This document shows positions 8,331 to 8,514 of a stretch of 64,000 nucleotides of DNA, one piece after another. The stretch comes from Candidatus Magasanikiibacteriota bacterium (GTDB lineage Bacteria; Patescibacteriota; Patescibacteriia; Magasanikbacterales; GWA2-37-8). The stretch's first letter is position 1. Each line of letters opens with the position of its first letter. The stretch covers positions 2,015 through 66,014 of the forward strand of contig JACOYB010000006.1 in assembly GCA_016182085.1 (NCBI GenBank), read 5' to 3'. A program made the translations under genes and the position numbers. The notes under the pieces are model-generated. The model had not been told where the DNA came from. It did not search any database and was given only the letters and a program-made list of their open reading frames with translations.

Positions 8331-8514
8331 ACATAAGAGCAACACGATAGTTTGTGTTGTGACAAGAGACGAGAACGCCGGAGCGATATCGCACGACGCA
8401 GGCTGGCGAGTGCGATCGCGAGGCGGTCCGCCCAGATGAATCCGTTCGGACGGGTGGCTAGACAAAATTTTCGGAAGAAAATTTTAGTCGAAGCCGAGTC
8501 TCTCCCGCGGCGCA
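8331..8514 (+). other. Conserved GC-rich tRNA-Leu-associated element (copy 1) ending in a 17-nt direct repeat of the tRNA 3' end
   Basis: ~85% identical to reverse complement of 62315-62494. Terminal cgagtctctcccgcggc repeats the tRNA T-stem and acceptor. Confidence 0.75.

Follow-up and report, generated by a model that had tools for sequence, protein, structure and literature searches.

The stretch of DNA analysed here (the window; 64,000 nt of contig JACOYB010000006.1 from a Candidatus Magasanikiibacteriota bacterium) contains nine tRNA genes. Two of them, tRNA-Leu(TAG) and tRNA-Leu(CAG), are intact and are followed directly by a GC-rich element; the other seven tRNAs do not carry one. The initial annotation placed an element of about 170 nt 3' of both genes. 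This description holds: the elements are approximately 163 nt long (8332-8494 on the forward strand and 62333-62494 on the reverse strand) and are 89% identical to each other (148/166), while their host tRNAs share 62% identity. GC content is 54% and 59% for the elements and 42% for the window. The identical 3' tail, previously put at 60 nt, extends over the terminal 78 nt and takes in the 28-nt extra hairpin described below. A 26-mer from the element has two exact occurrences in the window where none is expected, and a covariance model run on the window scores the two copies at 93 and 88.5 bits; the next match scores 16.6 bits.

Both loci share one order of parts: tRNA, trailer, hairpin H1, a guide complementary to tRNA positions 53-64, a three-way junction of the H2 and H3 domains ending in ...GAAGC, and a direct repeat of tRNA positions 56-73 (Table 1). 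The repeat of the tRNA 3' end had been noticed before as T-stem and acceptor sequence; it is present at both loci and starts at C56 of the T-loop. In the distal repeat behind tRNA-Leu(TAG) the discriminator is G instead of A. The single mismatch behind tRNA-Leu(CAG) is at position 60, where the guide agrees with the proximal copy. Nothing terminator-like lies between tRNA and element at either locus. The 28-nt extra hairpin is found in both window copies, in L025 and in L043, and is missing from the orthologous copy L008/L010. Elsewhere in the window, tRNA-Arg(TCT) has a different kind of partial tRNA duplication and the 23S rRNA gene contains a group I intron.

Table 1. Parts of the two tRNA-Leu loci, in window coordinates
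Feature	Position	Strand	Basis
tRNA-Leu(TAG), intact; proximal repeat copy S1 = 8314-8331, from C56	8248-8331	+	ARAGORN; Rfam tRNA, 59.2 bits; repeat mapping
Trailer CAUAAGAG and hairpin H1 (8340-8359, CAACAC/GUGUUG)	8332-8359	+	Folds; H1 covariation
Antisense guide AGAGAC-GAG-AAC	8365-8376	+	Complementarity to T-loop and T-stem 3' strand of own tRNA; permutation
H2 domain: CGCC/GGCG base, GGA/GA internal loop, GCG/CGC, 7-bp covarying helix, 15-nt loop	8376-8426	+	
Optional 28-nt extra hairpin UCCGCCCAGAUGAAUCCGUUCGGACGGG	8427-8454	+	Alignments
H3 domain: U-GGCU-A-GAC, hairpin AAAAUUUUC-GGAA-GAAAAUUUU, A-GUC-GA-AGC; end ...GAAGC	8455-8494	+	Covariation
Distal direct repeat S2, tRNA positions 56-72, CGAGTCTCTCCCGCGGC, 17/17	8495-8511	+	Repeat mapping
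tRNA-Leu(CAG), intact; proximal repeat copy S1 = 62495-62512, from C56	62495-62576	-	ARAGORN; Rfam; repeat mapping
Trailer CUAAGAG, hairpin H1 (62468-62487), linker to guide	62464-62494	-	Folds; H1 covariation
Antisense guide GAGGGAC-GAG-AAC, matching own T-arm (GUUC AA GUCCCUC)	62451-62463	-	Complementarity; covariation
H2 domain	62401-62451	-	Alignment; covariation
Optional 28-nt extra hairpin	62373-62400	-	Alignment
H3 domain, end ...GAAGC	62333-62372	-	Alignment; covariation; covariance model
Distal direct repeat S2, CAAGcCCCTCCTCGTCCAC, also given as CAAGcCCCUCCUCGUCCAC, 18/19	62314-62332	-	Repeat mapping

Distribution of the family

The GC-rich stretch behind the two tRNA-Leu genes is a member of a large family of protein-less, strongly folded elements of about 110-250 nt. 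A search for further copies in other genomes, proposed in the initial annotation, was productive; two narrow sequence patterns retrieved more than 150 copies in total. GTDB genomes contain 42 real matches, all in CPR-type metagenome-assembled genomes (MAGs). Each lies 3' of, and co-oriented with, a tmRNA or a tRNA (Lys, Leu, Ser, Val, Gly, Met, Thr, Arg, Pro, Glu, Asp or Asn). Metagenome contigs contain at least 122 matches and supply more than 110 of the copies. A co-oriented tRNA is directly upstream in 100 of the 122 matches listed, co-orientation being a criterion imposed by the scoring itself; among the matches listed, nearly all isoacceptors serve as hosts. An intact tRNA or tmRNA is found upstream at about 140 loci. 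One core family occupies more than 30 isoacceptors as well as tmRNA; the link to tRNA-Leu implied earlier therefore does not hold.

Spacing is variable on the tRNA side and narrow on the repeat side. The GAAC at the end of the guide lies 29-121 nt from the tRNA 3' end (93 measured metagenome loci), and H2 and the repeat are 40-44 nt apart in about 90% of metagenome loci. Copies can be clustered: contig L048 has five beside its tRNAs within 8 kb, and copies stand in tandem in L015 and L040. One layout recurs with at least three different cores, and within a genome the cores are homogenised.

ORF-bearing (autonomous) versions were sought among the metagenome copies, and none of these contains an ORF. 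The element locus of L008 has been called as a spurious 112-aa 'gene'. Three scans of viral contigs gave nothing, or only chance or coding matches (L001-L007, L060-L083) such as a phage portal/protease junction encoding 'MARPTEGMKVEA'. A full-text literature search found no published description of the element and Rfam 15 has no entry for the family; this family of tRNA- and tmRNA-trailing elements in Patescibacteria (CPR bacteria) is apparently undescribed so far.

Repeats and junctions

The direct repeat begins at C56 of the T-loop in nearly all loci; GGTT stands before the proximal copy and ...GAAGC before the distal one. Its right end is variable, and it is 15-89 nt long (typically 17-24 nt). 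In loci with a short trailer, the repeat stops where the conserved element starts; in L008, L029 and L038 it extends into H1 or the guide. Distal copies show indels as well as mismatches, and wherever the two copies differ the guide agrees with the proximal one. A T-run or terminator-like palindrome separates tRNA and element in about 45% of loci. The trailers of the proximal and distal copies often differ, being either distinct terminators or diverged homologues (L013, L014, L150 and others). The ends of the element (CAUAAGAG... and ...GUCGAAGC) are not inverted repeats.

Guide and fold

An internal antisense guide matched to the host tRNA had been missed in the initial annotation. At 8365-8376, the AAC of the guide pairs with G53U54U55, the adjacent G pairs with C56 and GAGAC pairs with G59-C63; a tandem G.A stands opposite G57A58. 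The guide is 9-22 nt long across the family, and half of the copies have a plain Watson-Crick helix across the junction region. Guides pair with their own tRNA at 5.87 of 7 positions, as against 4.50 +/- 0.09 when permuted (maximum 4.79 in 1000 permutations). Position 59 is paired in 94.5% of loci, by all four Watson-Crick types. Between the window copy (W) and its ortholog L039, the T-stem pair 51-63 and the guide have changed jointly, which is a three-way change. An anti-acceptor segment with 7/7 complementarity is present in 23 of 85 loci where 4.2 are expected; a general segment of this kind upstream of H1 was not significant in a first, smaller set.

Covariation strongly supports the fold. 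Over the whole structure, paired cells make up 86.9% (29-43% in slid controls) and changes on both sides are seen in 308 cells (43-108 in slid controls); the covariation check proposed for the element bears out a conserved structure. H1 pairs covary over 44 copies (16-33: AU 20, GC 20; 18-31: CG 23, GC 16). In H2 (helix 4), all ten pairs are changed on both sides and 92% of cells are paired; compensatory differences separate W, L008 and L010. In H3 (helix 6), all ten pairs covary, and in the metagenome set its basal helix covaries as well (GGCU..AGC, GCCC..GGG, GGCC..GGC). Junction residues vary little or not at all, also beyond the segments that the search patterns fix (GAAC, GCCGGA). Compensatory changes between the window copies had been claimed for ctggcg..cgcccag versus cgggcg..cgcccgg; these segments lie outside the supported structure and are not compensatory in one register. 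The true compensatory changes are in H2, where A-T becomes G-C at two pairs.

Minimum free energy (MFE) folds employ either 3' half of the tRNA. The counts of G.U (27) and A.C (31) are uninformative as a test of RNA versus single-stranded DNA. The H2 loop and the 28-nt insert, represented by four sequences, may form a tertiary pairing. Anatomy, fold, matching of the antisense segment to its host and the fixed left junction at C56 are direct observations.

Presence, absence and proposed mobility

The family shows presence/absence polymorphism, insertions in tandem and in series, and a single heterologous insertion. The tRNA-Leu(CAG) site is empty in four relatives (RNase J 81-93% identical) and the tRNA-Leu(TAG) site is empty in L012; an ORF of the LAGLIDADG type lies beside the tRNA in L012. 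The tRNA-Arg(TCG) site is filled in MFRA01 (L043), and the window keeps only a remnant consisting of H1 and guide. The 5' fragments of the element at the 'empty' L056 site and at tRNA-Arg(TCG) of the window are imprecise deletions, not clean excisions. The intergenic regions of W and L056/L057 are too diverged for exact insertion boundaries to be placed.

The heterologous insertion is L098, in which a Ser-type 3' end with Ser-matched anti-acceptor and guide lies within a copy of tRNA-Asp; the distal repeat is Asp-type. Because the proximal end is Ser-type and the distal end Asp-type, the proximal 3' end is element-borne. This re-targeting event yielded a dead chimera.

An all-against-all BLAST of ORFs from 40 loci gave no recurrent neighbouring protein family, and a Pfam scan of 50 of the 53 predicted ORFs of the window gave no integrase, transposase, reverse transcriptase (RT) or Cas protein. 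One relative (L058) has an IS200-like Y1_Tnp ORF (26.9 bits); it is unlinked, and the tRNA-Leu(CAG) site there is empty. We infer mobility from comparative patterns only, because a near-identical pair of filled and empty sites, an enzyme or an excised form was not observed.

Comparison with known systems

Known RNA families do not account for the element. Only tRNA and noise were found near the loci when the whole window was searched with Rfam at gathering thresholds, and the same was true when both loci were compared with the complete set of 4227 Rfam families (cmscan, E<=10). Neither copy matches Intron_gpI at E<=10, whereas the window's 23S intron reaches 69.9 bits. A group I intron is further rejected because the topology is wrong, the upstream tRNA is complete, U55 faces an A of the guide and the last residue of the element is C. 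Hammerhead, HDV-like/theta, hatchet, twister, pistol and hairpin ribozymes gave no Rfam covariance match at E<=10, and manual mapping of the cores onto hammerhead, hairpin and HDV-like ribozymes gave no fit.

The element resembles islands and prophages that integrate into tRNA and tmRNA genes. These are reportedly tyrosine-integrase elements with a T-loop sublocation among their insertion points (K.P. Williams, 2002). Shared features are a position in the 3' part of the gene with the crossover in the T-loop, a replacement 3' end that leaves the gene intact, a direct repeat of variable length formed by the displaced end and the use of tmRNA as a target. Integrase-type elements also have an integrase of their own and one fixed target gene per family, and neither was found here, the Pfam scan covering 50 of the window ORFs. 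In contrast to islands of 5-100 kb, the element has about 110-250 nt and is about 100 times smaller; it has no integrase or ORF and occupies dozens of tRNAs rather than one. It also has an antisense copy of the att site, a three-way-junction fold and tandem or serial copies.

MITEs, REPINs/RAYT and the IS200/IS605-derived PATEs are likewise small, non-coding, hairpin-rich and multi-copy, with no enzyme of their own. In IS608-type elements, a short internal guide pairs with the single-stranded target or cleavage site, and insertion takes place 3' of a fixed motif without terminal inverted repeats. Unlike all of these, the present element has a host-matched guide of 9-22 nt, carries the end of its target gene and makes no short target duplications. 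An identity as a MITE is rejected, since there are no terminal inverted repeats and the flanking repeat is tRNA-derived and 15-89 nt long. A casposon- or CRISPR-like element, which would have a Cas1 integrase and a fixed 14-15-bp duplication, is rejected due to the absence of ORFs and terminal inverted repeats, the variable repeat length and the different origins of the L098 repeats.

In CTX-phi attP(+), which is recombined by XerCD, and in integron attC sites, inverted site copies anneal in a folded strand of conserved structure, the duplex site lies beside unpaired or forked regions and the element has no recombinase of its own. The same arrangement is seen here, in a strand that may be RNA or DNA; in contrast, the paired site mimics the tRNA T-arm rather than dif or the GTTRRRY core. 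Guide-plus-scaffold RNAs offer another parallel, as in group I internal guide sequences, trans-splicing ribozymes, TnpB omegaRNA and IS110 bridge RNA a scaffold is flanked by sequence matching the insertion site. The antisense guide across the junction recalls an internal guide sequence, the target-identical 3' tail recalls the guide after the fixed 'GTT' motif of TnpB omegaRNA, and both target strands are addressed as in IS110 bridge RNAs. The element differs in having no nuclease or recombinase ORF in or beside it, a core unlike group I and no internal-loop guides; TnpB omegaRNA and IS110 bridge RNA are rejected as identities, as there is no adjacent ORF family and no Rfam match.

Canonical group I introns are found in tRNA genes of Patescibacteria, where they interrupt the gene in the anticodon loop (35/36) and self-splice (PMC13011429). 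They share phylum and host-gene class with the element, and like it they are selfish insertions with RNA structure that tiny genomes tolerate. The element differs in following an intact tRNA, in T-loop register.

Interpretation

We have moderate confidence that the segment is one copy of a multi-copy, non-coding, non-autonomous integrative family that targets the T-loop of tRNA and tmRNA genes in Patescibacteria. One of two readings in the initial annotation had been a miniature tRNA-targeting integrative element without integrase, mobilised in trans; it is now the best supported, given the empty sites, the many copies per genome, the tandem copies, L098 and the lack of an ORF or integrase. 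The mobile unit would consist of S1, an antisense segment A and the core. S1 would comprise tRNA positions 56-73 plus the trailer, often with a terminator-like palindrome. A would be antisense to the 3' part of the same tRNA; it always covers positions 53-64, at about a quarter of the loci the acceptor strand too, and is usually split by the conserved hairpin H1. The core would be the three-way junction of the H2 and H3 domains, terminating in ...GAAGC. The unit would be placed between T55 and C56 of the tRNA gene, the element-borne S1 would complete the gene, which stays intact, and the original 3' end would be displaced downstream as the direct repeat S2, free to decay. Campbell-type insertion, in which a small unit recombines within the T-arm, would leave such a layout, as it does for tRNA-integrating islands. 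Movement may proceed through an excised intermediate, circular or folded and single-stranded. The A:S duplex at the three-way junction may present or recognise the recombination site, and the chemistry may be supplied in trans by a recombinase, an HUH-type nuclease or, following natural transformation, host recombination. Gene conversion would explain why copies in one genome evolve in concert.

Some observations sit uneasily with integration of this kind. A fixed tRNA 3' end should confine the unit to a single tRNA, but the family is found at more than 30 isoacceptors; together with the homogenised cores, this requires frequent gene conversion plus rare re-targeting. The tandem G.A, GNRA-like loops and co-orientation with the tRNA at every scored locus fit an RNA function equally well. 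More tentatively, the element may belong to a new class of protein-less guided homing elements of about 150-250 nt, in which base-pairing programs the insertion site at any tRNA or tmRNA T-loop with no integrase. The antisense guide, as folded RNA or single-stranded DNA, would pair with the T-arm at the three-way junction, and catalysis of insertion or excision would come from a recruited housekeeping enzyme or from the folded strand, acting as a new small ribozyme or as a viroid-like circular RNA that has a DNA stage. An intron-like or ribozyme-based element, whose core would either be a small ribozyme of a new kind or be acted on by host RNA enzymes, appears unlikely. Cleavage would take place 5' of the guide-paired C56, at U55|C56 proximally and GC|C56 distally, giving a unit-length, possibly circular RNA and/or tRNA 1-55 spliced to the distal 3' half; spread would be by reverse transcription, either target-primed or via cDNA recombination. 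The guide straddles the junction like an internal guide sequence (AAC with G53-U55, the rest with 56-64), guide, core and '3' exon' are arranged as in a trans-splicing ribozyme, and the genomic layout equals a greater-than-unit-length copy with two equivalent junctions. A precise 3' junction and a variable 5' side have the polarity of target-primed reverse transcription, although that mechanism would not give the element-borne proximal 3' end of L098. Self-splicing introns are abundant in CPR genomes, and one is the 23S group I intron of the window; in contrast, group II introns, the usual bacterial source of RT, are reported absent from Patescibacteria (PMC13011429), and no RT is found among the scanned window ORFs. 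Rfam ribozyme and intron models do not match at E<=10, the core has neither group I topology nor a U.G at the junction nor a terminal G, and the plain Watson-Crick junction of half of the copies is against it. Splicing would also be needless, as the upstream tRNA is already intact.

The other earlier reading, a structured RNA co-transcribed with tRNA-Leu, is partly right in that the fold covaries and no terminator-like site separates tRNA and element in the window. As a full account it would make the element a cis-acting RNA spread by ordinary duplication or recombination, in which the guide and the spare 3' end let the precursor toggle closure of the tRNA with the proximal or distal 3' half; the role would be control of tRNA processing, quality control or stability. 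Strong covariation with RNA-like motifs on the tRNA strand, a guide that follows the functional T-arm (including the three-way change between W and L039) and MFE folds that use either 3' half suit this account; so does the shared strand wherever an upstream tRNA is found, a criterion imposed by the scoring. It is nevertheless improbable. The element is patchy at orthologous tRNAs of close relatives and follows only two of the nine window tRNAs, and in about 45% of loci tRNA and element are separated by a T-run or terminator-like palindrome; in addition, several unrelated cores share one layout. Patchiness, decay of the distal copies, tandem and serial copies and the L098 chimera argue for selfish insertion rather than a housekeeping RNA. 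A transposon-like element with a long target-site duplication, in which only H1, guide and core are mobile and both repeats derive from the target, is very doubtful. Staggered cuts at 55|56 and beyond the tRNA 3' end, of casposon/CRISPR type or LINE type, would account for any tRNA as target, for both repeat copies matching the host, for repeats of typically 17-24 nt with a fixed left end and for conserved elements starting at the repeat end in short-trailer loci. Such cuts would not re-programme the guide, yet the guide matches each tRNA; they are also at odds with L098 (proximal Ser-type, distal Asp-type), with the often different terminators in the two trailers and with repeats that reach H1 or the guide (L008, L029, L038). 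Neither terminal inverted repeats nor a Cas1, transposase or RT gene were found in the neighbourhoods or among the scanned window ORFs. Inert debris of integrase-mediated island or prophage integration, or of partial tRNA gene duplication, without conserved function, is scarcely credible. Direct repeats of tRNA 3' ends are a normal scar of island integration and the window has another partial duplication at tRNA-Arg(TCT), but more than 150 copies with one fold, extensive compensatory change and a host-matched guide occur across distant CPR lineages; the covariation and permutation tests have effectively refuted this reading already.

Significance

If the integrative reading is true, tRNA-integrating elements can be as small as non-coding units of a few hundred nucleotides, the smallest known, and these abound in the streamlined Patescibacteria genomes. 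The mechanistic question is then what recombines a T-loop with a folded element carrying both antisense and sense copies of the site; possible answers are a recombinase or HUH enzyme of a new kind that acts in trans, a host function taken over by the element, or a nucleic acid with new catalytic activity. An insertion site programmed by base-pairing would be of biotechnological interest. In annotation of CPR MAGs, the elements cause spurious ORF calls and duplicated tRNA ends, and they are strain-level insertion markers. Since Rfam 15 has no entry for it, the family merits one as an RNA or mobile-element family.

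Element copies in the window

Two of the nine tRNA genes in the window, both tRNA-Leu, are followed by an element that terminates in ...GTCGAAGC; a copy of the 3' end of the respective tRNA comes directly after it. The two elements are 89% identical (148/166), compared with 62% between their tRNAs, and their final 78 nt are identical. Their GC content is 54% and 59% against 42% for the window. A 26-mer of the element occurs twice in the window versus 0 expected. A covariance model scores the two copies at 93 and 88.5 bits and the rest of the window at 16.6 bits or less; it was calibrated quickly and its E-values are rough. 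Because of this identity, the repeats, the 26-mer count and the model scores, the GC-rich element with repeated tRNA 3' ends reported in the initial annotation is real. No Rfam family matches either window copy at E<=10.

Coordinates of features in the window and in related loci (L, other loci retrieved from genomes or metagenome contigs)
Feature	Position	Strand	Remarks
tRNA-Leu(TAG)	8248-8331	+	intact
Element after tRNA-Leu(TAG)	8332-8494		directly abuts tRNA, no gap
Distal repeat, tRNA-Leu(TAG)	8495-8511		17/17 identical to tRNA 3' end
tRNA-Leu(CAG)	62495-62576	-	intact
Element after tRNA-Leu(CAG)	62333-62494		directly abuts tRNA, no gap
Distal repeat, tRNA-Leu(CAG)	62314-62332		18/19 identical to tRNA 3' end
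Element remnant	24803-24856	-	downstream of tRNA-Arg(TCG) 24857-24929; H1-homologous hairpin GACTCAC..GTGAGTC and guide-like GGAAGAATC
Partial tRNA duplication	3952-4010	-	downstream of tRNA-Arg(TCT) 4011-4083; kind differs from element
Group I intron	12119-12317	+	Rfam Intron_gpI, 69.9 bits; inside 23S rRNA gene 9485-12690, near its 3' domain
Chimeric tRNA fragment	L098:1061-1213	-	tRNA-Asp anticodon to T-arm plus Ser-type T-stem/acceptor 3' end; adjoins intact tRNA-Asp
IS200-like Y1 (HUH) transposase ORF	L058:4417-4992		Pfam Y1_Tnp, 26.9 bits; adjoins RNase J, Magasanikbacteria relative
Further core	L015:2629-2732
Further core	L040:2794-2901
Further core	L026		first element after tRNA-Val
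Further core	L051, +357 after tmRNA		second repeat
Further core	L044, +302
Further cores	L179, L116, L181

Anatomy and fold

A single layout is common to all copies. An intact tRNA is followed by a trailer of 8-80 nt, a hairpin, H1, which is usually present and has the conserved loop AAYUGMUU, and an antisense guide ending in GAAC. The core consists of the hairpin domains H2 (CGCC/GGCG, a GGA/GA internal loop, GCG/CGC, then a 7-bp variable helix) and H3 (e.g. GGCU-A-GAC, a variable hairpin, then GUC-GA-AGC); a second tRNA copy, from C56 onward, comes last. CGAG/CGAG tandem G.A motifs and a GGAA loop are often seen in the variable hairpin of H3. A T-run or terminator-like palindrome is found in the trailer of about 45% of loci; the window trailer is only CAUAAGAG, and no terminator-like site was found between tRNA and element in the window. 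In loci without a terminator (e.g. L017, L021, L024, L112, L151, L170 and L200), a purine-rich motif, (G)AACGAAGUGAG, stands directly after the tRNA; it recurs in the trailers of many loci, followed by an anti-acceptor segment and then by H1.

Helix P1 (the guide with positions 56-64) joins H2 and H3 at a three-way junction, where only AA and U are unpaired. In an alignment of 43 copies (A4), standard pairs fill 86.9% of pair cells, versus 29-43% after sliding the 3' partners by 1-3 columns; both sides are changed in 308 cells, versus 43-108 in the slid controls, and none of 500 column shuffles reaches the observed covariation values. Double changes are found in 10/10 pairs of the H2 variable part, 10/10 H3 hairpin pairs and 7/10 P1 pairs; H1 also covaries. 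The check for covariation proposed in the initial annotation therefore supports the fold. GGCGG, UGGCUAGAC and AGUCGAAGC are invariant in the first set of copies by construction, as are GAACGCCGGAGCG and CGCGAGGCGG in the second. Since the H3 basal helix was fixed by the first search pattern, its covariation is read from the second (metagenome) set, in which GGCU..AGC, GCCC..GGG, GGCC..GGC and GGUU..AAC occur, as do GAC/GUC and GCC/GGC.

G.U pairs (27) are not commoner than A.C (31). Tandem G.A is common (127) and specific to the tRNA strand; therefore the folded strand is the tRNA-sense strand, as RNA or single-stranded DNA.

Match between guide and host tRNA

The 9-10 nt ahead of AAC in the guide are the reverse complement of host tRNA positions 56-64, and AAC itself complements G53U54U55. 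At positions 57-58 the guide offers either Watson-Crick partners (...UCGAAC, ...UUGAAC) or a tandem G.A (...GAGAAC). The latter is the case in the window, where AGAGAC faces GUCUCU of the TAG tRNA and GAGGGAC faces GUCCCUC of the CAG tRNA. Across 91 metagenome loci the guide pairs with its own tRNA (positions 59-65) at 5.87 of 7 bases; with tRNAs permuted among loci the value is 4.50 +/- 0.09, with a maximum of 4.79 in 1000 permutations. Position 59 is paired in 94.5% of loci, and all four Watson-Crick combinations are used. T-stem pair 51-63 and the guide are altered together in the orthologous pair formed by a window copy and L039. The acceptor 3' strand has a 7/7 complement in the trailer at 23 of 85 loci (4.2 expected; maximum 10 in 500 permutations), and in some loci (L110, L092, L189, L119 and L203) the antisense spans the entire 3' part, positions 53-76.

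Junctions and origin of the repeats

On the left, the repeat has a fixed boundary at C56, reading GGTT|C in the proximal copy (the 3' end of the intact tRNA) and ...GAAGC|C in the distal one; its right end is variable (15 to 89 nt). Sequence comparison indicates that the proximal copy is element-borne and that the distal copy is probably the displaced original. The proximal copy would travel with the element because the guide matches it, the trailers differ and locus L098 is a chimera. Where positions 56-60 differ between copies, the guide fits the proximal one; mismatches, indels and nested remnants are found in distal copies. Terminators behind the two copies are often different. In L013, L014 and L150 they are recognisably homologous but diverged, and the tRNA part is identical; such divergence would follow if the 3' end and trailer of this tRNA had arrived with the unit from a different lineage.

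Locus L098 has an intact tRNA-Asp(GTC) and, behind it, a partial Asp copy that changes in the T-arm to a 3' end of Ser type, CCCTCCCTCTCCGCCA. A terminator, an anti-acceptor segment (GGCGGAGAGG) and a guide, the latter two both Ser-matched, and the core come next; the distal repeat is of Asp type, CGAATCCCTTCCGGTCCGCCA. This arrangement is decisive: it is the chimera predicted for a tRNA-Ser-adapted unit in the T-loop of a tRNA-Asp with a similar T-arm, and so provides direct evidence that the element can land in a heterologous tRNA. A Ser-type proximal copy with an Asp-type distal one contradicts an origin of the repeats by target-site duplication.

The host T-loop is UCCGAAU instead of UUCGAAU in L013 and L045 (tRNA-Lys(TTT)) and in L042 (tRNA-Ser(GGA)). 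Their position 55 is a C, the base that also stands before C56 at the distal junction (...GC|C56); this suggests that distal and proximal junctions may exchange sequence.

Behind tRNA-Arg(TCT) in the window, 22 nt (TAGACGAGTCAGGCGGGCGGGT) precede a 37-nt tRNA repeat with 2 mismatches, spanning the anticodon-stem 3' strand to the tRNA 3' end. An intact tRNA with a copy beginning near the anticodon is also present in L098 (tRNA-Asp) and L164 (tRNA-Ser); such copies may be the scar of anticodon-loop-targeted insertions or of rescue duplications.

Distribution across genomes

All copies were retrieved via two sequence patterns derived from the window. The first, from the 3' domain, yields 43 loci in GTDB species genomes, of which 42 are in CPR-type MAGs (Magasanik-, Uhr-, Falkow-, Ryan- and Taylorbacteria, Microgenomates, Parcubacteria and others); the 'Gammaproteobacteria' label on several of these is evidently wrong. 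The element lies on the same strand as, and downstream of, tRNA-Lys, Leu, Ser, Val, Gly, Met, Thr, Arg, Pro, Glu, Asp, Asn and tmRNA. The second, an independent 5'-domain pattern, yields at least 120 loci on metagenome contigs. Among the 122 matches listed, 100 have a co-oriented tRNA directly upstream, and nearly all isoacceptor types are represented; 10 are at contig edges, and in 9 (7 of them inspected) the upstream tRNA is not detectable or only degenerate. The guide-end GAAC is 29-121 nt from the tRNA 3' end in 93 loci measured. The tie to tRNA-Leu implied by the two window copies is thus wrong, as both searches place the element behind many isoacceptors and tmRNA.

Further diverged copies are found with the covariance model: five within 8 kb of L048, adjoining its tRNAs, and one more in each of L015 and L040, in tandem with the first. 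No real copy was found in the viral contigs scanned. Chance matches are L053 (Micrococcus) for the first pattern and 3 of the 122 for the second, in GC-rich coding sequence.

Gain, loss and exchange

Occupancy is polymorphic. tRNA-Leu(CAG) is filled in the window and L039 and empty in four relatives with RNase J 81-93% identical; tRNA-Leu(TAG) is filled in the window, L008/L009, L010/L011, L041 and L137 and empty in L012. The close relative MFRA01 (L043) has the full element at tRNA-Arg(TCG). At this gene the window retains only H1 and a guide-like GGAAGAAUC, without core or distal repeat, and homology to MFRA01 stops exactly at the guide/core boundary.

The two window copies have in common a 28-nt extra hairpin as well as the identical 3' part; this hairpin is missing from the orthologous TAG copy in L008/L010, and H3 variants are genome-specific. 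These patterns point to probable gene conversion, or exchange, between the copies of one genome.

At least two further core families combine the antisense T-arm, hairpins and tRNA 3' repeat with unrelated core sequences; other cores of the same layout stand in tandem with the element family in L026, L044, L051, L015, L179, L116 and L181. One family ends ...UUUCGGGGGAAGAG|GAAUCC. Another ends ...CUGUAA(A/G)|(G)UUC; its repeat therefore begins at position 53/54.

The PNPase gene is upstream of tRNA-Leu(TAG) in the window, and its product is 100% identical to a Candidatus Magasanikbacteria protein. In MFRA01 a called 112-aa ORF without Pfam hit (L008:6278-6616) lies between the two genes; it is missing in the window, so the region upstream of this tRNA is also variable.

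Coding capacity and candidate enzymes

In about 90% of metagenome copies, 40-44 nt separate the end of H2 from the repeat; no metagenome copy contains an ORF. No recurrent protein family was found within the 8-kb loci. The window has 53 predicted ORFs; among the 50 scanned against Pfam, which include DprA, topoisomerase I and RNase III, there is no integrase, transposase, reverse transcriptase or Cas/TnpB-like protein. The Y1 ORF of L058, found in one relative, is a candidate class of trans-acting enzyme for hairpin elements, and only a lead.

A free-standing LAGLIDADG-type ORF of 216 aa (L012:6319-6969; precomputed Pfam LAGLIDADG_3, weak) stops one base before the element-free tRNA-Leu(TAG) of L012. 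A similar ORF family is present in L016 and one other locus; the L012 ORF may be a homing endonuclease that is intron-less and linked to tRNA genes. Canonical group I introns in 23S rRNA are typical of CPR genomes; the one in the window is unrelated in sequence to the tRNA-associated element.

Interpretation

On balance, we lean towards a non-autonomous, T-loop-specific integrative element. The unit would comprise positions 56-73 plus trailer, the antisense segment split by H1, H2 and H3, and would lie within a tRNA or tmRNA gene, between T55 and C56. It would supply the working 3' end while the old 3' end stays downstream, a Campbell-type layout cut down to a few hundred non-coding nucleotides. 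Integration would involve an excised intermediate, an antisense:sense duplex at the three-way junction that presents or recognises the site, and a trans-acting enzyme that does the work. A fixed 3' end should tie the unit to one tRNA; more than 30 isoacceptors could therefore be colonised only through rare re-targeting. Such jumps do occur, as L098 shows, and as a rule are dead ends.

A cis-acting structured RNA modulating tRNA maturation would fit the strand, the motifs and the terminator-free trailer in the window, but patchy presence, decaying distal copies, tandem arrays and terminators in almost half of the trailers make it rather improbable. We give a similarly small chance to an element that is intron-like or based on a ribozyme, or that passes through a circular RNA and a retro-step. 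Its attractions are a guide that bridges the junction in the manner of an internal guide sequence and a genomic copy exceeding unit length; however, no model matches, splicing is not needed, the window ORFs scanned include no reverse transcriptase and L098 speaks against target-primed copying. Transposition with a long target duplication is very unlikely, being contradicted by L098 and the differing trailers, and inert debris, excluded by covariation, is scarcely credible. A categorically new base-pair-programmed homing mechanism, or a new ribozyme, is doubtful.

Relation to known systems

The Campbell-type layout is known for tRNA-integrating islands. The element resembles these in target, regenerated gene and direct repeat; unlike them, it has neither an encoded integrase nor a single target, both of which define islands. 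It is non-autonomous and hairpin-rich like REPIN/PATE-type elements, two inverted site copies are paired as in folded att sites (CTX-phi attP, attC), and with its guide and scaffold it is reminiscent of group I guide sequences, omegaRNAs and bridge RNAs. By the tests run, it falls outside all of these. A survey of tRNA introns in Patescibacteria describes canonical group I introns in the anticodon loop (PMC13011429), and no published description of the element was found in a full-text literature search. What would be new here is a miniature, protein-less tRNA-integrating element.
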